A DNA stretch of 64,000 nucleotides, taken from the sequence record OM386653.1; one strand, written 5' to 3'. A program made the position numbers and the translations under genes. The number at the start of each line of letters is the position of its first letter. The stretch's first letter is position 1. Below the pieces are notes generated by a model. The model was given only the letters and a program-made list of their open reading frames with translations, was not told the DNA's origin and ran no database searches. This document shows, in pieces, positions 9,086 through 36,798 of the stretch. The DNA comes from Escherichia phage vB_EcoM_ESCO8.

Positions 9086-9167
9086 TGGCCGGGGTGACAG
9101 GATTCGAACCTGCATACTCCAATTACTCGGTTAACGCCTGATTAGAAGTCAGGTGAGATACACCCCG
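9086..9167 (-). tRNA. Atypical tRNA-like gene (UCU-type anticodon hairpin, no canonical D arm)
   Basis: Perfect 7-bp acceptor and canonical T-arm TTCGAAT; internal hairpin CCTGA-CTTCTAA-TCAGG. Confidence 0.35.
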
Positions 9168-9178
9168 TTTTCATAACG

Positions 9179-9208
9179 ACTATAACAAAAAAACTAAGTA
9201 AATGTCAA
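9179..9208 (-). promoter_or_regulatory. Sigma70-like promoter candidate for tRNA array (TTGACA-N18-TATAGT)
   Basis: Read on reverse complement; -10 ends ~12 nt upstream of the first tRNA-like gene. Confidence 0.35.
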
Positions 9209-9224
9209 GACATTTTTTAGGTGT

Positions 9225-9310
9225 TGGTGCAAGTGGAGGGATTCGAACCCTCAATCATTTAAGCGTTGCGTTTTAAGCACAATGTGTATCACCAATTCCA
9301 CCACACTTGC
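9225..9310 (-). tRNA. tRNA-Leu(UAA), type II
   Basis: Perfect acceptor, T-loop TTCGAAT, anticodon loop CTTAAAA. Confidence 0.6.
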
Positions 9311-9341
9311 ATATAGGAGATGCATAGCACCTCCTTTTAAA

Positions 9342-9417
9342 TGGTGGTTCCCCAGGGTTACAATCCCTGCCCTCGACACTTATGAGGTGTGCGCTCTCGT
9401 CAGTGAGCTATGGAACC
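9342..9417 (-). tRNA. tRNA with CAU anticodon, non-canonical T-loop
   Basis: D-arm GCTC/GAGC, anticodon loop CTCATAA, T-loop ATTGTAA. Confidence 0.45.
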
Positions 9418-9424
9418 TTGAATA

Positions 9425-17242: not shown

Positions 17243-17647
17243 ATGAAACAACTTATCATTTTACGTGGTGTTTCAGGCGCAGGTAAATCTACAGTAGCAG
17301 AAATTATTTCTGAAGGTTATTGGCCTATCTGTGAGGCAGATCAATATCATTACACAGAAAACGGTGTTTACGATTGGAAGCCAGAAAATGTAGGTAAAGC
17401 ACACGCATGGTGTCAGAGTATTGTTCGTGATGCTATGGCATCTAATATTAAAAAGATTATTGTCTCTAACACTTCAACCACAGAGAAAGAACTTAAACCT
17501 TATTTTACTATTGCTGAAGAGTTTGGTTATCAAGTTATCTCTTTAGTTGTTGAAAATAGGCACGGTAACGACTCAATTCATGAGGTTCCACAACATATTC
17601 GTGATCAGCAAGAGAAACGTCTTCGCAGTTCACTTAAGCTACAATAA
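17243..17647 (+). CDS. P-loop polynucleotide-kinase-like protein
   Basis: Walker A GVSGAGKST near N-terminus; 134 aa. Confidence 0.65.
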   Translation: MKQLIILRGVSGAGKSTVAEIISEGYWPICEADQYHYTENGVYDWKPENVGKAHAWCQSIVRDAMASNIKKIIVSNTSTTEKELKPYFTIAEEFGYQVISLVVENRHGNDSIHEVPQHIRDQQEKRLRSSLKLQ

Positions 17648-18205: not shown

Positions 18206-18402
18206 GGTTAACTATGACATTTATTGAAGAACTAACGAGAATTGCAAACGCGCCTAACAGTAGTGAAGATCCTTACTTTATGGTGGATGATTACACTGGT
18301 GGTAATATTGAGGATGCCTATGAACTAGGCAGACTACACGGTGAAATTGAAATGGCTAAATGGGTTCTTTCGCAACTGGAGGTTAAAGATGAAACAAACT
18401 AA
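18199..18402 (+). CDS. Hypothetical protein
   Basis: ORF track. Confidence 0.4.
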   Translation: MVRLTMTFIEELTRIANAPNSSEDPYFMVDDYTGGNIEDAYELGRLHGEIEMAKWVLSQLEVKDETN

Positions 18403-19504
18403 TCCTACATTATATGGTAAAACTTCTACAGGTAAAATTAGACAGTGGTCAGTCTATACCGAAGGTAGTGTTGTAACTGTTGCTCATGGTCAATTAGGTG
18501 GAAAGATCACTAGCAAATCTTATACGGCAGAACCTAAAAATATTGGTCGCTCAAATGAAACAACAGCAGAAGAACAAGCTGAAATAGAAGCTCTTGCCAA
18601 ATGGACAAAGCAAATTAAGAATGGGTATTATAAAACAAAAGAGGAAGCTGAAAACCATGTTCCTTCTACACCCATGAAATGTCAGGATTATAAAGATTAT
18701 GCTGATCGTGTTTTGTTCCCAGGTTATGCACAATATAAATTGAATGGTCTACGTTCAATGATTAACATGCAAGGTGAATGTTTATCTAAAGCTGGAGAGG
18801 TATATAAACTCCCACCTCACTGGGAAGAAATTCCAACCTTCATTAAAGAAGTAGTTGGTCATCCTCTTGACGGTGAAGTTTTTGCTGGTTTGGGTATCCT
18901 TAGCCTTCAACAAATTAATAGTGCGTGGAAAAAGCATAATGCTAACACTCCGCTTCTTAAATACTATGTATATGATGTTCCCGTGCCATCTGTACCATTT
19001 GAGAAGAGGGTTCAAGTTTTGGCTGCTCTCAAAGAAGTTGTTGAAGATAAAGGTTTAGATGAACTCATTTGTGTAGTACATACAGAGTACATTGAAAACC
19101 AAGAGCAGTTTGATGCTTTCTATGCAAAAGCTCTACGTGAGAAAGCGGAAGGTGTGGTGTATCGTAACGCACAAGGTGTTTACGAGTTTGATAAACGTTC
19201 TTATGATGTTATTAAACGTAAACCACGGCAGACGCTTGAAGTTAAAGTGGTAAGTGCAAAGCGTGATAAAAATGGTGACGGGGTATTGACAGGCGAGATG
19301 GAAAATGGTAAAGTAGTCGAATTCCTGATGCGTAAGGATTCAGATGAAACCATTAACTATCGTAAAGCAGAAAATGCCGAAATGTTAATTGGTAAATTTG
19401 TTGAGATTGAGTATGAAGAGTTTTCCGATGGTGGAATACCTACGAAACCAACAGGTGTCCGTTTACGGGAAATGGTGGAGGGAACATGGGAGCCAAGAGA
19501 GTAG
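18390..19504 (+). CDS. ATP-dependent DNA ligase (probable)
   Basis: Motif I KLNGLR; ~370 aa; start at ATG after GAGGT RBS. Confidence 0.6.
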
Positions 19505-20115
19505 ACCTTGTAGGTAAGAAATGCGGTTGTTATACTGTCTTAGAAGAGATTGAAAGGGACAAACATGGCAAAAGACGTTTTACTTGTTCTTGTGATTGTG
19601 GTAATATTTGCACGGTAACTATGGAAACACTTAGGAAGAGTAGAAGTTCTTATTGTTCCAAGTGTAGACCGAAAACAACACAAACAGGAGCATACAAATC
19701 GTGGGAAGCTATGTTAGGGAGATGCTATAACAAAAACAATACTCACTTTGAATACTACGGTGGTCGTGGTATTAAGGTTTGTGATGCTTGGAGAAATTCA
19801 TTCTCTGCATTCTTTGAGGATATGGGAGATAGACCTAAAGGTTTATCTCTTGACAGAATAGACTCGGAAAAAGATTACAGTAAAGAAAATTGTCGCTGGG
19901 CTACAAGGTCTGTCCAGTCATACAATACACGAAAACAGAAAAATAACACTTCTGGTAAAACAGGTGTTGTGTGGAGCGAGAAAGAAAAAAGATGGATTGC
20001 TCGTATATCCTATCAAGGAAAAGATATCCGTCTTGGAGCATTTATTGATATTGAAGATGCTATATCAGCAAGACAGGAAGCTGAAGTATTGTATTTTGGT
20101 AAGATTAAAACATAA
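19486..20115 (+). CDS. AP2-domain/zinc-finger endonuclease-like protein (possible homing endonuclease)
   Basis: N-terminal Cys cluster; C-terminal AP2-like VVWSEKEKRWIARISYQGKDIRLGAF. Confidence 0.55.
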   Translation: MGAKRVDLVGKKCGCYTVLEEIERDKHGKRRFTCSCDCGNICTVTMETLRKSRSSYCSKCRPKTTQTGAYKSWEAMLGRCYNKNNTHFEYYGGRGIKVCDAWRNSFSAFFEDMGDRPKGLSLDRIDSEKDYSKENCRWATRSVQSYNTRKQKNNTSGKTGVVWSEKEKRWIARISYQGKDIRLGAFIDIEDAISARQEAEVLYFGKIKT

Positions 20116-20126
20116 AGGAGGTTGCA

Positions 20127-20318
20127 ATGAACATTGAAGTTATTTTGATTCTTGTGTTGCTTTCTCTTGTTGCTTGTGGTATAATTTTCGCATCAACTTT
20201 CCCTCACCCAACATGGTGGCAGAAGGTTAGTCTGATGATTGTCTACGGTGCAGCAGGTGTACAAATGGGTGCAGTTGTTGTATATCTGGTGGAATTTACA
20301 AAACAATATTTTAAATAA
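20127..20318 (+). CDS. Small membrane protein (2 TM)
   Basis: ORF track; hydrophobic helices. Confidence 0.5.
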   Translation: MNIEVILILVLLSLVACGIIFASTFPHPTWWQKVSLMIVYGAAGVQMGAVVVYLVEFTKQYFK

Positions 20319-20327
20319 GGAGAAACA

Positions 20328-21050
20328 ATGATTGAGAATTTTTTTAAACAAGTAAAAGTGGACAATAGCTTCTTTATCAAAGCTGCCGATCAAATTGTTG
20401 CTTGGAATGCTAAGGCACGTGGTGGAGTAACTCCAGAATTTACTCAAGAGATGTTTGAAGCTCAACTTTCTTTTGTACGCGAAGAACTAAAAGAGTTTCA
20501 AGCAGCAGCACAGGAAAATGATCACGTTGAATTACTTGATGCAGCAGCAGATATTTTTGTGGTAGCCTCCTACCTGGCGTTTATGTTCTTTGGTAAAGAA
20601 GGTGTTGATAAAGCTCTGGAAATGCCAACAGGAGATGTTCTGGCAGAGAACATTTACGATGTTATCATTGAATTTGATAAAATGGTAGAAAATGACTTGC
20701 AATTTGCCTTAATGTCTCTTACACTTACCCGTATGGCACGAGATACTTTGGTGCGTTCTGTTTATAACGAGAAGAAGGTTATGCGTGAAGTGTTGAATAG
20801 CAATGAGTCCAAGTATCCTACCAAGAAGCAACTCCTGGCTATTTGGGAAACTAAGGATATTATTGAAGCTCTTGAAAAAGAGTGCGATGCTATCGAGATG
20901 CGAAGCAAAGATCGTGCAGAAGGTTCTTATACTGGGGTACATGCTGTATATAACGAAGTTCAAAAGGTGTACGTATTCTTTGATGACAAAGGTAAAATTA
21001 TGAAACCATCTACCTTTGTTAAACCTAATATCGCAGCAATCATTGCTTAA
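20328..21050 (+). CDS. MazG-like nucleoside triphosphate pyrophosphohydrolase (possible dNTPase)
   Basis: All-alpha acidic motifs (EELKEF, ELLDAAADI). Confidence 0.5.
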   Translation: MIENFFKQVKVDNSFFIKAADQIVAWNAKARGGVTPEFTQEMFEAQLSFVREELKEFQAAAQENDHVELLDAAADIFVVASYLAFMFFGKEGVDKALEMPTGDVLAENIYDVIIEFDKMVENDLQFALMSLTLTRMARDTLVRSVYNEKKVMREVLNSNESKYPTKKQLLAIWETKDIIEALEKECDAIEMRSKDRAEGSYTGVHAVYNEVQKVYVFFDDKGKIMKPSTFVKPNIAAIIA

Positions 21051-21056
21051 GAAATA

Positions 21057-21078
21057 AAGCCCCTTCGGGGGCTTATTG
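21057..21078 (+). terminator. Stem-loop terminator (AAGCCCC-TTCG-GGGGCTT)
   Basis: GC stem, short T-rich tail. Confidence 0.45.
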
Positions 21079-21086
21079 GAGGTATT

Positions 21087-21365
21087 ATGTTAACAGCAGA
21101 AGATATCTTTAAACACGGTTTGCGTCAGGTAATCAAATCCTTGAAGAATGCAGGTATTGAAGATATCACACAGGAAATTGTTGGTTTAGAAAAAGAAGGT
21201 AAGAGAACAGAATTTAAGTTTTACACAGAAGAACAGTGGCTGAGTAATCCGCAAAACAAAGCTAATGAGGCTGTTAGTCTGTTTGGTAAATCTTATAAAG
21301 GATTTAAATATCCTGATCATATTGTCGAATATGATGGTGTAAAATATTTTGTAGTTATTATTTGA
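21087..21365 (+). CDS. Hypothetical protein
   Basis: ORF track. Confidence 0.45.
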   Translation: MLTAEDIFKHGLRQVIKSLKNAGIEDITQEIVGLEKEGKRTEFKFYTEEQWLSNPQNKANEAVSLFGKSYKGFKYPDHIVEYDGVKYFVVII

Positions 21366-21375
21366 GGAGAAAACT

Positions 21376-22260
21376 ATGTTTGCTAAAAATTTCAAATCTT
21401 GCGTAACCCTGATTTCTGGTGATGGTCTGTCTATTTCCGCACTGAACACAGTAACAGACAAACCGCTGGATTTTGTTGTGGCACAGGGTCAACAAGCACA
21501 TACCATTGGTCTTGTTCGTTTTGAAGATGATGGTTCCTATGTAAAAGTGTTCTCTGGTTTAGAGGTTATTAAAGTAGGGCAATCTGTTAAGAAAGTTAAC
21601 AAGAAAAAAGTTAAACGCATTCTTAATGAAAAACTCCAAGAGATGGAACAAGAGTTTATTGCTGCAAATCCTACTAAAGAATTCTTCTTGGACAAAGAAA
21701 GTAAAAAAGCAATTGAGGCTGATATCGTGTTTTCTCTGCTCCCAGAAACAGAGGCAGATGATTTCTATAACTATGTTGTTGTAGACACTGAAAACAGTAT
21801 TACCTACGTTCTTAATGGTACTAAGAAAATTAGTGAAGATATTGCTGTGTTTCTTCGTGAGGTGTTGGGTACTTTCCCAGTCCTGCCGTTTAGTGTACAC
21901 GAAGAGGCCATTATTAAAGGTTTTGATACCATCTTAGAAGAACATGAGGCTGAACGACTGACCCTTGGTAATTATATTAAACTTGAAGATTCTGAAGGTG
22001 TGGTTGTATGGAGTAAAGAATCCCTTTATGAATCTCGTGCAGTAGAACTTATGGAAGATGGTAAGCACGTTGTTGCCATTGGCCTGGAATATGACGGTTT
22101 CGTTAACTTTATTGTTGATAAAGAATTTAAGTTGAGTGGTATTAAATTCCCTAAATACTTTAACGATGAAGAAGGATCTTTTGAAGCATCTGTCCTTCTG
22201 TGCTTTAATGAAATCCGTGGTATTATGCAAGACCTTATTAAGTCAACTATTCAAAAATAA
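21376..22260 (+). CDS. Hypothetical protein (294 aa)
   Basis: ORF track; RBS GAGGAGAA. Confidence 0.5.
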   Translation: MFAKNFKSCVTLISGDGLSISALNTVTDKPLDFVVAQGQQAHTIGLVRFEDDGSYVKVFSGLEVIKVGQSVKKVNKKKVKRILNEKLQEMEQEFIAANPTKEFFLDKESKKAIEADIVFSLLPETEADDFYNYVVVDTENSITYVLNGTKKISEDIAVFLREVLGTFPVLPFSVHEEAIIKGFDTILEEHEAERLTLGNYIKLEDSEGVVVWSKESLYESRAVELMEDGKHVVAIGLEYDGFVNFIVDKEFKLSGIKFPKYFNDEEGSFEASVLLCFNEIRGIMQDLIKSTIQK

Positions 22261-22263
22261 TAC

Positions 22264-22293
22264 TTGACTTACTAATTTAATATGTGTTAATAT
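22264..22293 (+). promoter_or_regulatory. Sigma70-like promoter candidate (TTGACT-N18-TAATAT)
   Basis: Hexamers upstream of 22336. Confidence 0.35.
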
Positions 22294-22335
22294 GCCTACC
22301 TACTTAGTTAGGTGGGCTTTTAAGGAGACACACCA

Positions 22336-22548
22336 ATGAAAAAACTTCTTGTCGGTTTACTTTTAGTAATCAGTTCTTATTCTTATGCTGGTCAAATAAC
22401 TTTAATTAATTCTGGAGAACAAGTTTCTGGAAGTACAAAATACTGTTTTTACTCTAACGGTATGTACGACAAGGTTATAGAGGTTTCTGCAAGTCGTCAG
22501 TGTCCCTACACACGAACATTCTCAACAGAGAGTTCAGATGATGAATAG
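22336..22548 (+). CDS. Small secreted protein (signal peptide)
   Basis: N-terminal MKKLLVGLLLVISSYSYA. Confidence 0.5.
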   Translation: MKKLLVGLLLVISSYSYAGQITLINSGEQVSGSTKYCFYSNGMYDKVIEVSASRQCPYTRTFSTESSDDE

Positions 22549-22640
22549 GAGGTAATATTAGCGGTTACATTTTAATCCAACCGGAAGACCTGCACAAATA
22601 TGTTGACGAGAACACAATTCTTGCAATAGACTACGATCAA

Positions 22641-23675
22641 GTGGCGTTCCAAGCATCTTCAGCTTTAGAACAAAGAAAAATCCACGCTGTACACAAGGCT
22701 TCCGGTAATGTAAAAGAGTTTGAAACAAGAACAGATTTTTGGGGTAAATCTTCAAAAAATATTGGAGGATGGTTAGGAGCACTTAACGCGCAACGCGAAG
22801 CTGCTGGTAAGAAGTTGTTCTCCAAGGAAGATTTTGAAATAAAAGATGTTCAAATAGTCCCAGAGAATATTTCTTTTACGTTTCAAGCTGCAAAGACAAA
22901 AATAACCCAGATGGTGGATCACCTAAAACTTCAAAAGTATTGCGGTGTCATCGGGGTAGGAAAAACCTTCCGGCATTCTTTCAAAATGCCAAAAGAATAT
23001 AAATCAGAACGATCAGATTTAAGACCAATCCAATTATCAGATACTAAAGATTATCTAGTTGAAAAACATAACGGTGACGTTGTTACTGGTATTGAGGCAG
23101 ATGATGCTTTAGAAATCTATGGATATGCAGGGTATAAAGCCTACAAGGAAACTGGTAAGTTTTCTCATATTGTAGCATCTATCGACAAAGATAGCTTACA
23201 CACACCAAGTTTACTCTTTAACTTTTATAAAGAGGATGGTGTTTATAAAAATCCTTGTGTTATTCTGATTGATGAATCTATCGGTGATATCTGGATCGTA
23301 GAAAAAGGTAAGAAAAAAGAAGTTAAGGGTTGGGGTAGTTACTGGTTAGCTTATCAAATGCTAATGGGCGATAAGACAGATAGTATTCGACCTTACCAAG
23401 ATTTCGATGTTAAGTTTGGAGATATTACTTGCTTTAATCTTATTTCCAAATGTAAAACACAGGCTGAACTTTTTCAGACAGTTAAAGATCAGTATTATGA
23501 ATGGTTCCCAGATGGCGTTAAATTTACTTCTTGGGATGGTGAAGAAGTAGAAATGACAACTGATGAATGGATAGAGACAATTTTTCAGTTGGTATATATG
23601 AAACGTTGGGCGAATGATGAAACAACTTTTGAAAGTATGCTACAAGCATATATTTCAGAGCAGGAGGAACATTGA
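22641..23675 (+). CDS. Hypothetical protein with EADD motif (possible nuclease); start uncertain
   Basis: ORF track (GTG start); GIEADDALE motif. Confidence 0.4.
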   Translation: MAFQASSALEQRKIHAVHKASGNVKEFETRTDFWGKSSKNIGGWLGALNAQREAAGKKLFSKEDFEIKDVQIVPENISFTFQAAKTKITQMVDHLKLQKYCGVIGVGKTFRHSFKMPKEYKSERSDLRPIQLSDTKDYLVEKHNGDVVTGIEADDALEIYGYAGYKAYKETGKFSHIVASIDKDSLHTPSLLFNFYKEDGVYKNPCVILIDESIGDIWIVEKGKKKEVKGWGSYWLAYQMLMGDKTDSIRPYQDFDVKFGDITCFNLISKCKTQAELFQTVKDQYYEWFPDGVKFTSWDGEEVEMTTDEWIETIFQLVYMKRWANDETTFESMLQAYISEQEEH

Positions 23676-24634
23676 GTAAATTAACAGACGAACAGAAAGC
23701 CTTGATTGTATCTATGAAAGCACAAGGTTATTCTTCGCGTAAGATTGCACAAGAGGTGTTGGGAAGTTCTACTAAGAAGAGCACAGTAAATGATTACTTA
23801 GCTCGTGTAAATTCACCACATCGTGGTGCTCCGCAAGATAAAGGTGGGCCAGTAATTAAAATTATTGACGTAGAGACAGCACCGGAGATTGTGTATAGCT
23901 TCTCACGTTTCAAAGCCTTTATTGCACCTGAACAAGTTATTCGTCGAGGTTACTTGCTTTCCTATTCCTCTGCTGATTTAGAAACAGGGGAAGTAGAAGG
24001 TAAGAACCTTAGCAATTACCCTTTGTTTGACATAGATCATACAGATGATTGGGAATTATGTCAAGATCTCTGGCACTTACTTGACGATGCAGATATTGTG
24101 ATCGCGCACAATGGTATTAAGTTTGATAAGGCTTATATTAACCAACGTTTTGCTTTTCACGGTATGGAGCCACCATCGCATTATGTTGTAATTGATACAC
24201 TCAAGGCAGCTAAGAAGCAGTTTGCACTACCTTCTAATGCGCTTAAAGAAATGTGTTTGTATTTTGATACAGAAAACTTTAAACTTGATAATGAAGGTTT
24301 TCCTTTGTGGAAAGCATGTTGTGAAGGAGATAGACATGCCTTCTTCCGTATGCAAACATACAACGATGGTGATGTTGTTTCTCTTAGAGATCTTTACATC
24401 AAACTTCGTGCATGGATTCCACAACATCCTAACGTATCTGCATTCTATGACGATGAAAAACTTCGTTGTCCTCGTTGCGGTAAAGAGCACCTTGAAGTTG
24501 TTCCTGGTAAGGTTTACACAACAGCGGTTAGTACATTCCAAGTGCTAAGATGCACATCATGTAATAGCCTGTCTCGTGGACGTGTTAATTTGCGTAGCAA
24601 AGAGAAGCGTGTAAACACTGTTATTGGAATTTAA
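23672..24634 (+). CDS. DnaQ-like 3'-5' exonuclease with N-terminal HTH and C-terminal zinc ribbon
   Basis: Motifs IIDVETA, IAHNGIKFD, YNDGDVV; CPRCG...CTSC. Confidence 0.6.
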   Translation: MSKLTDEQKALIVSMKAQGYSSRKIAQEVLGSSTKKSTVNDYLARVNSPHRGAPQDKGGPVIKIIDVETAPEIVYSFSRFKAFIAPEQVIRRGYLLSYSSADLETGEVEGKNLSNYPLFDIDHTDDWELCQDLWHLLDDADIVIAHNGIKFDKAYINQRFAFHGMEPPSHYVVIDTLKAAKKQFALPSNALKEMCLYFDTENFKLDNEGFPLWKACCEGDRHAFFRMQTYNDGDVVSLRDLYIKLRAWIPQHPNVSAFYDDEKLRCPRCGKEHLEVVPGKVYTTAVSTFQVLRCTSCNSLSRGRVNLRSKEKRVNTVIGI

Positions 24635-24635
24635 T

Positions 24636-24665
24636 AAAAAGGGGCGAAAGCCCCTTTATTTTTGG
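24636..24665 (+). terminator. Rho-independent terminator (GGGGC-GAAA-GCCCC + T-run)
   Basis: Stem-loop followed by TTTATTTTT. Confidence 0.7.
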
Positions 24666-24672
24666 AGGATTT

Positions 24673-25074
24673 ATGACTACAGCACTGGATATTCAAATTG
24701 ATGGTGATCACTACAAACGTATGCGTATGCAACCTTTGGAACTTGCATATCTAATTGGTGCAACTCCTTGTTTCACTAAGTTAGCTAAGTATGCTTGTCG
24801 AAACAAAGGTGATCGTGTGATCAACCTAAACAAAGCGATTCACGTTATTCATATTGAAAAAGAATTAAGTGATAAGTATTACAATATGTTGTATGAAGCC
24901 TACCCTAACTTAAAAAATCCTGTAAAAATTGAGTTAGCTAATCAGCTAATTGATTTATACACAGATGATGATCTTGTTCGTAAGGCTTTAAAAGCAATGT
25001 ACAAAGGTAAATATATTGAAGCAGCAGATGCTATTGAAACATTGAAGGAGAGTGTAGATGGCTTCTCACGGTAA
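24673..25074 (+). CDS. Hypothetical protein
   Basis: ORF track; GGAGG RBS. Confidence 0.5.
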   Translation: MTTALDIQIDGDHYKRMRMQPLELAYLIGATPCFTKLAKYACRNKGDRVINLNKAIHVIHIEKELSDKYYNMLYEAYPNLKNPVKIELANQLIDLYTDDDLVRKALKAMYKGKYIEAADAIETLKESVDGFSR

Positions 25075-25252
25075 ACAATACGGAGAGGGTGAAGTATATA
25101 AAATATACAATAAACGTGGAGATAAACTCTTATATACAATCACAATCCCAGAAAACATGTGTAAGGCTGGTTTAGACCGTATGCTTTTCTTTAAATATAA
25201 CATTCCACCTGGAGATTATGTAGCTAAAAAGGTGAGCACTATTGGAAAATAA
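25058..25252 (+). CDS. Hypothetical protein
   Basis: ORF track. Confidence 0.4.
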   Translation: MASHGKQYGEGEVYKIYNKRGDKLLYTITIPENMCKAGLDRMLFFKYNIPPGDYVAKKVSTIGK

Positions 25253-25817
25253 AGAACCTAAAGTTATTTGGGGAGATGGAACACCTTGGAAAACTCAAGC
25301 AGCCTTTTATACATATTTAAGGGGTTGCTTAAGGAAAGCATGGGTGAGACACCCGAATAAGATAAAAAAGATCCAATCTGTACGATTTAAAGCTGATAGA
25401 TTGGATAAAGATGGAAATATAGTCTTAGATAAGAAAACAGGCAAACCGAAACAGGTTTGGAATTGTAAGTGTGAATTGTGTGGACATACAGGAGGTATGA
25501 AAGACTTTCAAGTAGACCATATTAATGCAGCAGGTACATTAACCTGTTATGAAGATATCCCAAGTTTTGTTTTACGCCTATTGTACGTAACAGAAGACGA
25601 CCTGCGTGTAGTTTGTAAGCAGTGTAACGCTATCCTGGCTTACGCTGACAAGCACGATATGACATTCAGGGAAGCAAAAGCGGAGAAGGAAGCGATAGCT
25701 TTATGCCAGTCTAAAAAGGATAAAAATTGGCTAACGAAGCGCGGAATTTCACCAGAAAGTACAGTAAGTAAGAGAAGAAAACAAATAGTAAAAATTCTTC
25801 TTGACGAAGAGAAATAA
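25242..25817 (+). CDS. HNH endonuclease (possible homing endonuclease)
   Basis: CKCELCGH...QVDHINAAG...CKQCN motif. Confidence 0.6.
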   Translation: MENKEPKVIWGDGTPWKTQAAFYTYLRGCLRKAWVRHPNKIKKIQSVRFKADRLDKDGNIVLDKKTGKPKQVWNCKCELCGHTGGMKDFQVDHINAAGTLTCYEDIPSFVLRLLYVTEDDLRVVCKQCNAILAYADKHDMTFREAKAEKEAIALCQSKKDKNWLTKRGISPESTVSKRRKQIVKILLDEEK

Positions 25818-25862: not shown

Positions 25863-26426
25863 ATGGCTAAACTTTATTTCCGATATAGTCCGATGAACAG
25901 TGGTAAAAGCACACATCTGCTACAAACAGCTTGGAACTATAAAGAAAGAAATATGAAAGTTCTTCTTTTAACTTCAGCTTTAGATACCAGATCTGGTTGT
26001 GCTATTGCTTCTAGGATAGGTATTAAAGAGGAAGCAAAACCAGTTAAAACAAAAGAAGATATGCTGGAAATTTATACACAACTTAAAGAAAATCCAGTCG
26101 ATGCAGTATTTGTGGACGAATCACAATTCCTAACTAAAGATATGGTTGACATTCTTGGAGATGTGGTAGATAATTACGATATTCCTGTATTCTGTTATGG
26201 GCTTAAAACAGATTTTGCTACAGAATTGTTTGAAGGTTCTGAACGGTTATTAGCCATAGCAGATTCAATTACAGAATTGAAAAGCATTTGTAAATGTGGA
26301 AGAAAAGCTATTTTCAATGCTAGACTTATCGACTCTAAAGAACAGATTGTTATTGGAGGAGAAGACATTTACGAAACAATGTGTAGAAAATGTTATAACA
26401 GGAGAAATAATGCGTCTAGTATGTGA
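25863..26426 (+). CDS. tdk: Thymidine kinase
   Basis: P-loop SPMNSGKST; C-terminal CxxC zinc motifs; 187 aa. Confidence 0.8.
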   Translation: MAKLYFRYSPMNSGKSTHLLQTAWNYKERNMKVLLLTSALDTRSGCAIASRIGIKEEAKPVKTKEDMLEIYTQLKENPVDAVFVDESQFLTKDMVDILGDVVDNYDIPVFCYGLKTDFATELFEGSERLLAIADSITELKSICKCGRKAIFNARLIDSKEQIVIGGEDIYETMCRKCYNRRNNASSM

Positions 26427-33342: not shown

Positions 33343-33540
33343 ATGATGCTAGATCAACTGATCAATACTCCTCGCGTAACAGTAAGTCCAAAAACATTTG
33401 CATCACTTTTAGAAGATGCTAGAGAGGTTTATAACTTTACTGAAGAAGAGATTCCTGTTCCTGTTGAAAAAGGTTCCAGATGGTTGTTTTATGAAGGTAT
33501 TATTTTTACTGAAGGGAATAATTGGAAGGAGACTAAATGA
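33343..33540 (+). CDS. Hypothetical protein
   Basis: ORF track 33250..33540 trimmed to ATG after AGGAGG RBS. Confidence 0.4.
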   Translation: MMLDQLINTPRVTVSPKTFASLLEDAREVYNFTEEEIPVPVEKGSRWLFYEGIIFTEGNNWKETK

Positions 33541-34526
33541 AATACTTAGTAACAGGTGGTTTAGGCTTTATTGGAAGTGCAGTAGTTCGTTTCCTGGCTA
33601 AAAATACTAAGAATGATATTTACGTTATAGATAAATGGGGTTACGCTTCAGACCCTAGAAATTTATCAGAAACACCTAATGTAAAGTTTTGTCGTGTTGA
33701 CTTGACAAATGCGCAGTTAACTGCTAAGATTGTGGCAGATGTTAATCCAGATTATATAATGCATCTTGCAGCAGAGAGTCACGTAGATAATTCAATAGCA
33801 TCACCGAGTGTTTTTATAAATTCAAATATTGTTGGAACATTTAATCTTCTAGAGGCTGTTCGTTTAATGGGAGATAAATCAAATCTTAAAATGTTCCATC
33901 ATATTTCAACAGATGAAGTGTATGGTGATATGGAAGAAGGGGATTATCCGTTTACAGAACAGAATCCTTATAAACCAAGTAGTCCATATGCTGCATCTAA
34001 AGCTGCAAGCGATCATTTGGTAAGAGCATGGCATCGTACTTATGGTATTCCGACAGTTATAACAAATTGTTCAAATAATTTTGGAGCATATCATCATCCA
34101 GAAAAACTAATACCTAAAACGATAACAAATATCTTGATGCATAAACCAATCCCTGTTTATGGCAATGGTCTTCAAGTAAGAGATTGGTTATACGTTGACG
34201 ATCACGCAGAAGCATTACACCTAGTAGTAACTAAAGGCAAATCTGGAGAAACATATAATATTGGGAGCAGAAACCCTAGAACTAATATTGATGTAATCTA
34301 TATGATTTGTGATTATATGGATGCGGTGTATCCATCTGAAACAGATGCTTGTAGCCTCATTGAAATGGTTACAGATAGACCTGGACATGATTTAAGATAC
34401 GAAGTGAATCCTTATAAGATTGAAAAGGAATTAGGGTGGAAAGCTAAAGGCATATTTGAAGAAAAACTTTATTCAACCATTGATTGGTATGTAGATAACA
34501 AAGAGTGGTGGGAAAATAAAGTTTAA
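33537..34526 (+). CDS. rfbB: dTDP-glucose 4,6-dehydratase
   Basis: N-terminal TGGLGFIGS Rossmann motif; 329 aa. Confidence 0.75.
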
Positions 34527-34534
34527 GGAGGAGT

Positions 34535-35404
34535 ATGAAAGGTATTATCTTAGCAGGTGGTAGTGGAACAAGACTTTACCCAGTTACTAAAGGGGTTAGT
34601 AAACAACTATTACCAATTTATGATAAGCCTATGATTTATTATCCACTCTCTGTCCTAATGCTTTCTGGAATTAGGGAAATACTAATAATTACAACACCAG
34701 AAGATCAAATTAATTTTGTAAATCTTCTAGGTGATGGTTCTTCTTTTGGTATTTCCCTACAGTATGCAATACAGGATAGCCCAAGAGGTTTAGCAGAAGC
34801 GTTTATTATTGGTGAGAACTTTATTGGTGAAGATTCTGTAGCACTTGTGCTAGGTGATAATTTATTCTTTGGTCAGAGTTTTGGTAGCATTTTAGATTCT
34901 GCTAAAGAACATATTGAAAAGAATGGTGGAGCTAATATTTTTGGGTATCACGTAAATGATCCTGAAAGATTTGGTGTTGTTGAGTTTGATTCTGAAGGTA
35001 CAGTGGTGAGTATTGAAGAAAAACCAAAAGCACCAAAAAGCAACTATGCAATCACAGGCTTGTACTTTTACGATAATTCTGTTGTACAGAAAGCTAAAAG
35101 CGTTAAACCTTCTGCTAGAGGGGAGTTAGAGATTACAGATATAAATGAGATGTACTGGAAAGAAAAGGCTTTACGTGTCTGTAAACTAGGAAGAGGTTTC
35201 ACTTGGCTGGATACAGGAACACATGAAAGTCTTATGGAAGCATCTCAATTTGTTCATGCAATAGAAAAGCAACAAGGTATGAAGGTTGCATGCCTGGAAG
35301 AGATTGCTTTTAAAAATGAATGGATTACTTTAGACTCTGTAAAAAGTTCTGGAGAGGTTTTAAGTAAAACAGACTACGGTAAGTATTTACTTAAATTAAA
35401 ATAA
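34535..35404 (+). CDS. rfbA: Glucose-1-phosphate thymidylyltransferase
   Basis: N-terminal [14 protein letters not shown]. Confidence 0.8.
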
Positions 35405-35416
35405 AGGGGGAATTAA

Positions 35417-35971
35417 ATGATTCAAGCAACAAAAATCGAAGATTTGTTGATCATTCAACCTGACGTTTACGGAGATGAACGTGGTTTTTTCTTAGAAAGT
35501 TTTAATCAGGCTTTATATGATCAATACATAGGTAAACAAAACTTTGTCCAAGATAACCATTCACGTTCTATTCGAGGAGTTCTACGTGGGCTTCATTTTC
35601 AAAAGAAAAACCCACAAGGGAAGTTAGTACGTTGTGTTCGTGGTGAAGTTTATGATGTTGCTGTAGATATTAGGGTTGGTAGTCCAACATTTGGAGAATG
35701 GGTAGGTGTTCTCTTATCTGAAAAGAATAAAACACAATTTTGGATTCCTCCTGGTTTCGCTCATGGCTTTGTTGTGATTAGTGACATTGCTGATTTTGAA
35801 TATAAATGTACAGAATATTACGATCCGACTTCAGAGTGTAGTCTTGCGTGGAATGATCCAGATATCAATATTGATTGGGGTTTTGATTTAATCTTTAATG
35901 ATATTAATTTTAAACCTATCTTGTCACAAAAAGATCAGCAAGCCAAAACACTAAAGGAGATCATATTTTGA
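35417..35971 (+). CDS. rfbC: dTDP-4-dehydrorhamnose 3,5-epimerase
   Basis: Cupin motifs; 184 aa. Confidence 0.7.
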   Translation: MIQATKIEDLLIIQPDVYGDERGFFLESFNQALYDQYIGKQNFVQDNHSRSIRGVLRGLHFQKKNPQGKLVRCVRGEVYDVAVDIRVGSPTFGEWVGVLLSEKNKTQFWIPPGFAHGFVVISDIADFEYKCTEYYDPTSECSLAWNDPDINIDWGFDLIFNDINFKPILSQKDQQAKTLKEIIF

Positions 35972-36798
35972 CAAAATTTTTAATCTTTGGTTCAAAAGGT
36001 CAATTAGGACAGTCTTTGGCAAAAGTTGCGCCCGAAGATGTTATTTTGATTGAAGCAAGTGATGTAGACATTACCAACTTTAAAGATGTTATGAATAGTC
36101 TTGTACAGCATGTGCCTGATGTTGTTGTGAATTGTGCGGCTTACACGGCAGTAGATAAAGCTGAAGAAGATGTTAACACCTGTATAAATGTTAATGCATA
36201 CGGTGCAACAAACATTGCCAAAGCATGTAATGATTTACTGATACAGTTTGTACATATTTCAACAGACTATGTTTTTGATGGGCATGTTGCTGGCACAGAA
36301 GATAGTAAAACAAACCCCTTGAACACCTACGGTTACAGTAAACAATTAGGTGAAACTTTAGTACAAACAGTTTGTCCTACAGCACTTATTATCAGAACAG
36401 CTTCTGTTTATAGTGAATTTGGACATAACTTTTTGAAAACTATGTTGGAACGCTACAACGGTGGTCAAAAAGAATTTAATGTAGTATGTGATCATTTGTC
36501 ATGTCCTACTTATGCACCTGATCTTGCAGAAACAATTTTTAAACTTGTAAAAGATGGTGTAAATAGTAAAGTTGTACACTATGCAGGTGCAGATTATATT
36601 TCTTGGTATGATTTTGCACGAAAGATATTTCTTGTTATAGATTTATCTGTTACAGTTAATCCTGTATCTGCTTCAACCTATAATTCCAAAGCAGTCAGAC
36701 CAGCAACATCTTATTTAAAAACAGATCCTACTTTAAATCCGCGAAGTGTTGATAGCGGTATTGTAAGAACTTTAACTATACTTTTAAACAAGGAGTGA
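35968..36798 (+). CDS. rfbD: dTDP-4-dehydrorhamnose reductase
   Basis: N-terminal IFGSKGQLG Rossmann motif; 276 aa; follows rfbC. Confidence 0.7.
   Translation: MTKFLIFGSKGQLGQSLAKVAPEDVILIEASDVDITNFKDVMNSLVQHVPDVVVNCAAYTAVDKAEEDVNTCINVNAYGATNIAKACNDLLIQFVHISTDYVFDGHVAGTEDSKTNPLNTYGYSKQLGETLVQTVCPTALIIRTASVYSEFGHNFLKTMLERYNGGQKEFNVVCDHLSCPTYAPDLAETIFKLVKDGVNSKVVHYAGADYISWYDFARKIFLVIDLSVTVNPVSASTYNSKAVRPATSYLKTDPTLNPRSVDSGIVRTLTILLNKE

Follow-up and report, generated by a model that had tools for sequence, protein, structure and literature searches.

HNH-1 and HNH-2 are two genes for HNH-type proteins in a stretch of 64,000 nucleotides (nt) from Escherichia phage vB_EcoM_ESCO8 (sequence record OM386653.1); this whole stretch is called the window in the following. 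HNH-1 (19486–20115, 209 amino acids, aa) overlaps the final 19 nt of the DNA ligase gene, and HNH-2 (25242–25817, 191 aa, with a TTG start) stops 45 nt before the thymidine kinase gene, tdk. It is probable that HNH-1 is a selfish gene of the homing type residing at ligase 3′ ends, and that HNH-2 is a fixed, vertically inherited nuclease that does not home. A first-pass annotation of this DNA had reported an AP2/zinc-finger reading frame over the ligase 3′ end and an HNH reading frame directly upstream of tdk, and had read both as free-standing homing endonuclease genes. Both open reading frames (ORFs) are real, and both genes are free-standing, because no Rfam family, including those of group I and II introns, matches between 18000 and 27000. 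The proposal of a mobile homing endonuclease is borne out for HNH-1, given its presence in 5 of 55 relatives, sharp junctions, diverged flanks, incongruence with these flanks, and relatives at ligase ends elsewhere. It fails for HNH-2, which keeps one position throughout the 55 relatives, in single copy, co-diverging with its neighbors, and under purifying selection. The two proteins are different and unrelated, neither has a paralog within the window, and base composition over the two genes shows no anomaly.

By its sequence matches, the window is placed in Justusliebigvirus (subfamily Stephanstirmvirinae), i.e., among the phi92-like Escherichia coli myophages. The 12 kb around both genes are 98–99% identical to phages of this type (VEcB, muut, PaulScherrer, phi92, and others), and the gene order is collinear with that of muut. 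The Justusliebigvirus set used throughout consists of the 55 records that match the window region at ≥95%.

A replacement cassette at the ligase 3′ end

Copies of HNH-1 with at least 99% identity occur in only five phage records, corresponding to three phages (VEcB, muut, and PaulScherrer), which is 5 of the 55 Justusliebigvirus records. Among 50,697 phage records the next best match has 44% identity, and one further copy, at 98%, is on an IMG/VR contig (locus L012). In the other ~50 Justusliebigvirus records, the match to the region is split in two and ~626 bp are missing, and in phi92 the ligase gene (gp091) is directly followed by gp090. The first-pass annotation had expected presence or absence in relatives, assessed by synteny comparison, to reveal mobility; this expectation holds for HNH-1 (5/55) and not for HNH-2, which shows no such polymorphism (55/55). 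The features of the locus, all on the plus strand, are listed below, genomes with and without the homing endonuclease gene (HEG) being called HEG+ and HEG-minus.

18389–19504, plus strand: ATP-dependent DNA ligase (Pfam DNA_ligase_A_M, PF01068, E = 4e-11; phrog_114, E = 1e-75), its start set by homology to phi92 gp091 and by the muut annotation
19468–20302, plus strand: replacement cassette, 835 bp in place of 209 bp, delimited by multi-genome alignment
19468–19504, plus strand: recoded ligase tail (last 12 codons and stop) forming the left cassette junction; 14/37 nt differ from every HEG-minus genome
19486–20115, plus strand: HNH-1, predicted free-standing homing endonuclease gene of the IPA-HNH class, from domain, family, and model evidence
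20127–20318, plus strand: ORF for a predicted 63-aa membrane protein, a HEG-linked allele replacing the phi92 gp090 type, from sequence comparison

The junctions of the cassette are sharp. In the HEG-minus phage cardinal, the sequence equals that of the window throughout 19229–19467, departs from it at 14 of the following 37 nt, and becomes identical again at ~20303. The HEG-minus ligases end in CGT AAG ATG ATT CCA GGT ACT TGG GAA CCA GCA GAG TAA and the HEG+ ligases in CGG GAA ATG GTG GAG GGA ACA TGG GAG CCA AGA GAG TAG, the protein being full length (371 aa) in both alleles. The HEG-minus tail is identical at 36/36 nt in phi92, cardinal, and alia, with variation in the preceding 24 nt (17/24 in alia). 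It is also shared at 32/36 nt with phiWec179, a Phapecoctavirus, and hence represents the ancestral state, since this is the sister genus. Within the recoded tail lie a Shine-Dalgarno-like GGAGG (19477–19481) and the ATG of the HEG (19486).

The ORF downstream of HNH-1 also differs between the two types of genomes. Its closest counterpart is the second of the small ORFs of phiWec179 (67% identity in aa, 75% in nt), as compared with 35% aa identity to phi92 gp090, and no HEG-minus Justusliebigvirus carries this allele. Because the allele goes with the HEG and takes the place of the gp090 type, it is likely a co-converted flank. With both a recoded ligase tail and a swapped downstream ORF, the polymorphism is therefore a replacement cassette and not a simple insertion or deletion, and the cassette looks as if it was imported from a diverged donor. 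The interval between the ligase and the pyrophosphohydrolase gene is itself variable across Stephanstirmvirinae, with either one or two small ORFs for predicted membrane proteins, the alleles being of several types (matched span 528–768 bp across genomes; for example, 1752–2138 in locus L006).

HEG+ genomes share 99% identity over the cassette, with 8/835 differences between the window and muut or PaulScherrer, and 17/835 between the window and the IMG/VR copy. The presence of the HEG does not follow the relatedness of the flanks. In the right flank, the genomes with fewest mismatches to the window are the HEG-minus alia (9) and cardinal (14), followed by the HEG+ muut (19) and PaulScherrer (35), and the flank of PaulScherrer is closest to that of the HEG-minus PHB05. 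Thus, HEG+ genomes do not group by their flanks. HNH-1 thus occurs sporadically at a single locus of otherwise near-identical genomes, in a pattern incongruent with its surroundings, and it is accompanied by diverged flanking sequence that travels with it, as expected for a homing gene. Near-identical public coliphages here differ by one 835-bp cassette, so that a selfish gene is seen as a polymorphism.

Free-standing HEGs of the T4 type (Seg and Mob, e.g., SegG and MobE) lie between conserved genes of DNA metabolism or overlap them without disrupting them; they are sporadic, they co-convert their flanks, and the HEG+ allele differs at the presumed target. HNH-1 would share these traits with T4-type HEGs and with the HNH_3-AP2 endonucleases (I-HmuI group; Magnani et al. 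2004, as cited in PMC10448857). Its core is unlike that of T4-type HEGs, as it has neither the canonical His nor a GIY-YIG domain.

Relatives of HNH-1, drawn from a collection of 5.8 billion proteins, point to the same target in other lineages. The closest ones (48–82% identity) are at a ligase 3′ end or in the same layout in five further contexts. The most similar (P0002, 82%) has the same 19-nt overlap with the upstream gene and a small ORF downstream, as known from gene coordinates alone. Two others (P0005, 48%; P0010, 50%), each in its own phage background, come immediately after PF01068 ligases, and these ligases have 46–49% identity to the window ligase. In loci L018 (P0004) and L019 (P0003), at 52–54% identity, the HEG comes directly after the ligase C-terminus, and the HEG product itself ends in another copy of the ligase tail (…KPVGVGLRKMNSNWEPLE*). 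The remnants downstream keep CGT AAG/A ATG A…TGG GAA/G CC, as in the HEG-minus ligases of Stephanstirmvirinae, and each of the three HEG+ lineages has its own recoding of the functional ligase tail. Two genes downstream of the HEG in L018 (1537–2199), a metagenomic contig, there is an ORF that by eye resembles ICP1 gp59 (LDKD... motif and AP2-like C-terminus), which would make this locus a HEG cluster.

The most economical reading of these data has the ligase 3′ end as the homing site, with the recoding as a protection of the carriers. The mechanism we infer would start in a mixed infection, where the zinc ribbon and AP2 domain of HNH-1 would recognize the ligase tail of a HEG-minus genome (about CGTAAGATGATTCCAGGTACTTGGGAACCAGCAGAGTAA) and the protein would cut or nick nearby, the predicted region being CGTAAGATGA...TGGGAACCA in HEG-minus DNA. 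Repair from the HEG+ genome would then copy the HEG together with flanking donor sequence, and the HEG+ allele would be protected by the recoding of the last 12 ligase codons. The same recoding would provide the HEG with a ribosome-binding site and a start codon within the ligase ORF, and therefore the ligase stays intact. The window has no copy of the putative target, an absence that chance alone predicts as well. HEG+ and HEG-minus phages that grow on E. coli K-12 are available (muut, alia, and PaulScherrer, which is Bas60 of the BASEL collection), which makes homing, co-conversion, and marker exclusion testable by crosses.

Domains, class, and candidate catalytic residues of HNH-1

Pfam and NCBIfam scans of HNH-1 give no match, even at E ≤ 10, and the domain calls were therefore made from structure and from family-level evidence. 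Among the PHROGs, the protein falls in families labeled HNH endonuclease (phrog_374, E = 2e-72), and an AlphaFold model built from 45 homologs has a pLDDT of 91. Three domains can be distinguished, all on the plus strand.

19513–19665, plus strand: predicted CapR-like zinc ribbon, ~aa 10–60, from the Cys pattern
19681–19935, plus strand: predicted His-less ββα domain, ~aa 66–150, from the model and family conservation
19948–20103, plus strand: AP2 domain, ~aa 155–206, from PDB sequence search and Foldseek

The N-terminal zinc ribbon is rich in Cys, with C36, C38, and C57 invariant, and it is weakly similar to bL31 in a PDB sequence search (E = 0.009). The matches of that search are bL31-like and AP2 only, with no nuclease among them. 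Conservation within the family is highest in the central domain, and the model predicts a ββα arrangement there (β121–124, β136–139, and α141–146), with a weak score to PacI and no nuclease in Foldseek. The residues R79, Y91, G92, G95, W102, D112, R124, Y131, N135, C136, and W138 are invariant in the 45 family sequences.

Barth, Dunham and Seed (2023, PMC10448857) described the IPA-HNH HEGs as AP2-associated genes whose HNH-like domain is too divergent for the Pfam HNH_3 model. The HNH-1 family profile (A3) aligns with ICP1 ORF59 (gp59), a founding member of the class, over 137 columns covering both the core and the AP2 domain (hhalign probability 97.4%, E = 1e-11). HNH-1 has the C-terminal AP2 domain, an HNH-like domain missed by Pfam and homologous to ICP1 gp59/gp209 in comparisons of hidden Markov models, and the genomic habit of the class, as it is free-standing, adjoins an essential gene, and varies among close relatives. 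On these grounds HNH-1 is assigned to the published IPA-HNH class of homing endonucleases. Like the ICP1 members (gp59/gp115-116/gp209), it is found beside an essential replication gene, gp59 adjoining and following the ICP1 DNA polymerase gene and HNH-1 following the ligase gene. Unlike gp59, it has an additional N-terminal CapR-like zinc ribbon and a YGGRGI motif. The IPA-HNH/AP2 family is very large, with at least 7,976 relatives.

The literature searched holds no report of experimental homing for any IPA-HNH gene, and no description for this class of a ligase 3′-end target or of a duplicated, recoded tail; nor does it mention the polymorphism within Justusliebigvirus and Stephanstirmvirinae. 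Three points thus appear to be new, namely the specificity of the clade for the ligase 3′ end, the ligase tails that are duplicated and recoded, and the Justusliebigvirus polymorphism. One clade of this recently named class can now be assigned a probable target, and the class as a whole can be flagged as lacking the canonical catalytic His.

At the position of the general base, HNH-1 has an Arg and ICP1 gp59 a Lys; gp59 keeps a Tyr equivalent to Y131. Two other elements of the His-Me fold are in place in HNH-1, namely a structural Asn before β2 (N135, in 45/45) and a metal-ligand Asn or His in the helix (N147, Asn in 42/45 and His in two of the rest), these roles being assigned by motif position only. 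The restriction enzyme PacI also has no catalytic His and uses a Tyr of its Ω-loop (Jablonska et al. 2017, PMC5714182). Because Y131, located in the Ω-loop, and N135 are invariant and N147 is kept in 42/45, a PacI-like, Tyr-dependent mechanism is plausible for HNH-1. Catalysis, if any, would proceed without the canonical His, the position being occupied by the invariant Arg, and Y131 may substitute for it as in PacI. The comparison is by analogy, as PacI (His-Me finger group 20; PDB 3m7k/3ldy) has a weak structural score with HNH-1 and no sequence-level match, and is a homodimeric enzyme without the AP2 and zinc-ribbon modules of HNH-1.

In 38 of the 45 family members, the linker between zinc ribbon and core carries a His ('xHG'). 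The segment containing it (window 19660–19685, aa ~59–66) is absent from HNH-1 of the window and from P0001–P0004, P0006, P0011, and P0016, and the model is least confident at this linker (pLDDT 64–78). The idea that this residue is the missing catalytic His was considered and rejected, as neither the window protein nor the ligase-associated relatives closest to it have the residue; for the same reason, it is not essential for this clade.

Several observations weigh against HNH-1 as an active homing endonuclease. No Pfam HNH model matches it (E ≤ 10), Foldseek against the PDB returns AP2 domains and no nuclease, the linker His of most relatives is missing, and no biochemical cleavage data for any IPA-HNH protein are found in the literature searched. 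The general-base His at the end of β1 is replaced by R124 in 45/45 sequences, in a core that has no invariant His. The replaced His and the missing Pfam and Foldseek matches would also suit a sequence-specific DNA binder with a dead His-Me-like core, i.e., a silencer or anti-defense protein similar to CapR/CasPR, the patchy distribution of which would reflect the flux of accessory genes by recombination. His-Me groups that lack both catalytic residues, such as Smad MH1 and Enpp, are inactive and bind DNA or substrate (PMC5714182). Furthermore, CasPRs, which are anti-CRISPR proteins, have a CapR zinc finger (C33/35/37, C56/58) as well as an AP2 domain, and they bind DNA to silence cas genes (bioRxiv 10.64898/2026.02.23.707548). 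HNH-1 has the same N-terminal CxCxC...CxxC zinc module (C34/C36/C38 and C57/C60) and C-terminal AP2, and the Pfam CapR model matches 2 of its 45 relatives. The modules of CapR and CasPR are derived from, or related to, the DNA-binding modules of HEGs. However, CasPRs are described with helical linkers between their domains and with no mention of a nuclease-like core, whereas HNH-1 has a highly conserved core, predicted to be ββα, and a homing-type genomic signature. The residues invariant in its core look like an active site and not like a linker, and the Ω-loop Tyr used by PacI is among them. A regulator would also have no reason to be at the ligase 3′ end in at least five backgrounds, nor to be accompanied by a duplicated, recoded tail. 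Hence, a purely DNA-binding HNH-1 seems unlikely.

The cassette could instead be ancestral to Justusliebigvirus and have been deleted in most lineages, the polymorphism resulting from loss and not from gain. The divergence of the cassette among HEG+ genomes (1–2%) is similar to the genome background. In distant lineages, HEG identity (48–50%) roughly tracks ligase identity (46–49%), which suggests old associations and counts against recent homing as the whole history; as the two identities co-vary, long co-residence also occurs. Yet HEG-minus genomes carry a different ligase tail and a different downstream allele (35% aa), without a deletion scar, and since both alleles differ, simple deletion cannot give the HEG-minus state. 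With the ancestral character of the HEG-minus tail, and with HEG+ genomes that do not form a clade in the flanks, loss is very improbable. A further point against the proposed mechanism concerns its last steps, as the recoding of the tail could serve only the Shine-Dalgarno sequence and ATG of the HEG, or be divergence of the donor lineage, and not confer immunity. Acquisition of HNH-1 by homing into the ligase 3′ end remains the preferred reading.

HNH-2 and the nucleotide-metabolism locus

The second locus provides the counterpart, a gene of the same annotated type that behaves as a core gene. Its features are the following, all on the plus strand.

25242–25817, plus strand: HNH-2, counterpart of phi92 gp081 and a conserved HNH nuclease (His-Me finger) with bound zinc, from motif and homology
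25464–25637, plus strand: HNH-2 predicted catalytic core, ~aa 75–132, from motif
25863–26426, plus strand: thymidine kinase (tdk), which abuts HNH-2 (Pfam TK, E = 1e-54)
24638–24657, plus strand: terminator-like hairpin after the DnaQ-like exonuclease gene (consensus match only; six such sites vs. 4.6 expected)

HNH-2 is found in a single copy in 763 phage records (764 places). It is present at ≥95% identity in 55/55 Justusliebigvirus and at 60–80% in 78 Phapecoctavirus-like records (position checked in one, Mt1B1_P17), and there is no presence/absence polymorphism in these 133 Stephanstirmvirinae records. Its identity with the Mt1B1_P17 homolog (76%) is within the range of its neighbors: exonuclease 86%, DnaQ-like 74%, gp083 55%, gp082 75%, NT5C-like 63%, and ThyX 72%. 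The ratio of nonsynonymous to synonymous substitution rates (dN/dS) is 0.083, the lowest of the six genes compared, although this is approximate because dS between genera is saturated (~2). HNH-2 is then, with this reservation on dN/dS, under strong purifying selection as judged from the alignments. The start codon of HNH-2 overlaps the stop codon of the ORF before it, and the position of the hairpin at 24638–24657, upstream of the gene, suggests that HNH-2 belongs to a gp083-gp082-HNH-2-tdk-NT5C-thyX unit with overlapping starts and stops.

The protein has the signature CxC-x2-C … D-H … C-x2-C-N, invariant in 38 relatives, and the elements of an HNH/His-Me nuclease are in place, i.e., a ββα fold with a D-H general base, an Asn, and two zinc pairs of the CxxC type. 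It is, from this motif, a canonical zinc-bound HNH nuclease and a conserved gene that has already been annotated. A PDB sequence search with HNH-2 returned no match, and neither the profile nor the fold match that would place it in the T4 endonuclease VII family (PF02945) was found. Unlike the packaging HNHs linked to terminase (GVE2 HNH, Gme HNH, and HK97 gp74 type), HNH-2 is not beside the terminase, as terminase and portal are at ~1100–4900 of the window by collinearity with muut, ~20 kb away. Unlike zinc-bound phage HNHs and T4 endonuclease VII, it has a conserved N-terminal domain of its own (W..GTPW...YLRGCLR.AW). The C-terminal domain is helical and possibly SAP-like. Locus L020, from another phage lineage with a ligase-associated HEG, has a 204-aa Endonuclease_7-type gene (4327–4941) beside the HEG and directly before a DnaQ-like exonuclease gene. 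Being in the same module, this gene may be a functional analog of HNH-2; it was rejected as a homolog (hhalign probability 11%).

Distant homologs of HNH-2 (26–38% identity) recur beside 5′-3′ exonuclease genes. In PAK_P1, the homolog directly follows an exodeoxyribonuclease gene. In Chaseviridae, it lies between a 5′-3′ exonuclease and a ligase and is annotated as endonuclease VII. In ICP1, an exodeoxyribonuclease gene comes after RdgC and a T5.141-like gene, and ORF179 lies three genes farther downstream. In the window, HNH-2 is in a module with RdgC, exonuclease, and DnaQ-like genes, and no annotated resolvase is found in the 50 kb examined. The recurring link to the exonuclease suggests a housekeeping nuclease, one that most likely works on phage or host DNA alongside the neighboring 5′-3′ exonuclease. 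It might clear junctions ahead of packaging, by resolution or debranching, or degrade host DNA and so feed the adjacent salvage genes (tdk, NT5C-like, ThyX, and NrdAB). The predicted role is thus most likely that of a housekeeping nuclease in a replication, recombination, and nucleotide-salvage module, and not of a homing enzyme. The annotation "HNH endonuclease" in phages does not always designate a mobile element.

The variable gene at this locus is, as far as the comparisons indicate, tdk. It is specific to the genus, with at least 99% identity in the 55 Justusliebigvirus records, and nothing in the phage collection matches it at 60–99%, its nearest relatives (Cronobacter phage GAP32 and T4-like phages) having ~52–54% identity. 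In Mt1B1_P17, the HNH-2 homolog is directly followed by the NT5C-like gene, and there is no tdk. This suggests that tdk was acquired horizontally next to HNH-2.

HNH-2 could still be a homing endonuclease, one that became fixed in Stephanstirmvirinae and in other groups and that persists selfishly, for example, as a Mob-like enzyme with adjacent cargo such as tdk. Barth et al. (2023, PMC10448857) grouped ICP1 gp179 with the Mob-like HNH HEGs on domain content; gp179 is probably the ORF179 homolog found here, which the HNH-2 profile matches at E = 8e-19. Their supplements contain no per-isolate data on gp179. This listing counts against a housekeeping role, as do the Pfam HNH and Endonuclease_7 matches of HNH-2, which are below threshold (Endonuclease_7, 14.4 vs. 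23.6 bits). Homologs in Barbaviruses are also annotated as "HNH homing endonuclease." In addition, the boundary of the tdk indel abuts the 3′ end of HNH-2, because of which a past or residual selfish or cargo-mobilizing role is kept alive at low probability. Fixed HEGs are nevertheless expected to decay, whereas the catalytic residues and zinc ligands of HNH-2 are intact in every aligned member. The uniform, single-copy distribution, the divergence in step with neighbors, the low dN/dS, and the embedding in an operon-like unit all argue against a selfish HNH-2, as does the recurrence of homologs beside 5′-3′ exonuclease genes in four unrelated phage groups. Moreover, no relation was found between the ORF179 family and ICP1 ORF80, which has the bona fide annotation as HNH HEG. 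A homing HNH-2 is thus improbable, and a fixed, vertically inherited nuclease is the better account of this gene.

A broader proposal would join the two loci, and we put it forward tentatively, as more doubtful than probable. The IPA-HNH/AP2 family may cut DNA without a general-base His by means of Y131, in a PacI-like and possibly covalent or Tyr-activated mechanism, with the HNH-1 clade parasitizing ligase 3′ ends and immunizing its carrier by recoding. HNH-2 would, in turn, assist the 5′-3′ exonuclease of more than 760 phage genomes as a partner that resolves junctions or degrades host DNA.

Other features of the window

Promoter-like sites occur at the level expected by chance (29 vs. 28.8), and therefore no promoter is claimed. 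A terminator-like hairpin is present on both strands at 21057–21082, directly 3′ of the gene for a MazG-like pyrophosphohydrolase. A second short mosaic patch lies at 17300–17500, where identity with phi92 drops to 63–80% within a small ATPase gene (17243–17647) in surroundings of more than 90%. By collinearity with muut, a four-gene cluster for dTDP-rhamnose biosynthesis (RmlA, B, C, and D-like), an unusual cargo for a lytic phage, is at ~33537–36798. By the same comparison, a cluster of ~15 predicted tRNA genes is on the minus strand at ~6380–9420, between the lysis/terminase region and the genes for NAD salvage.

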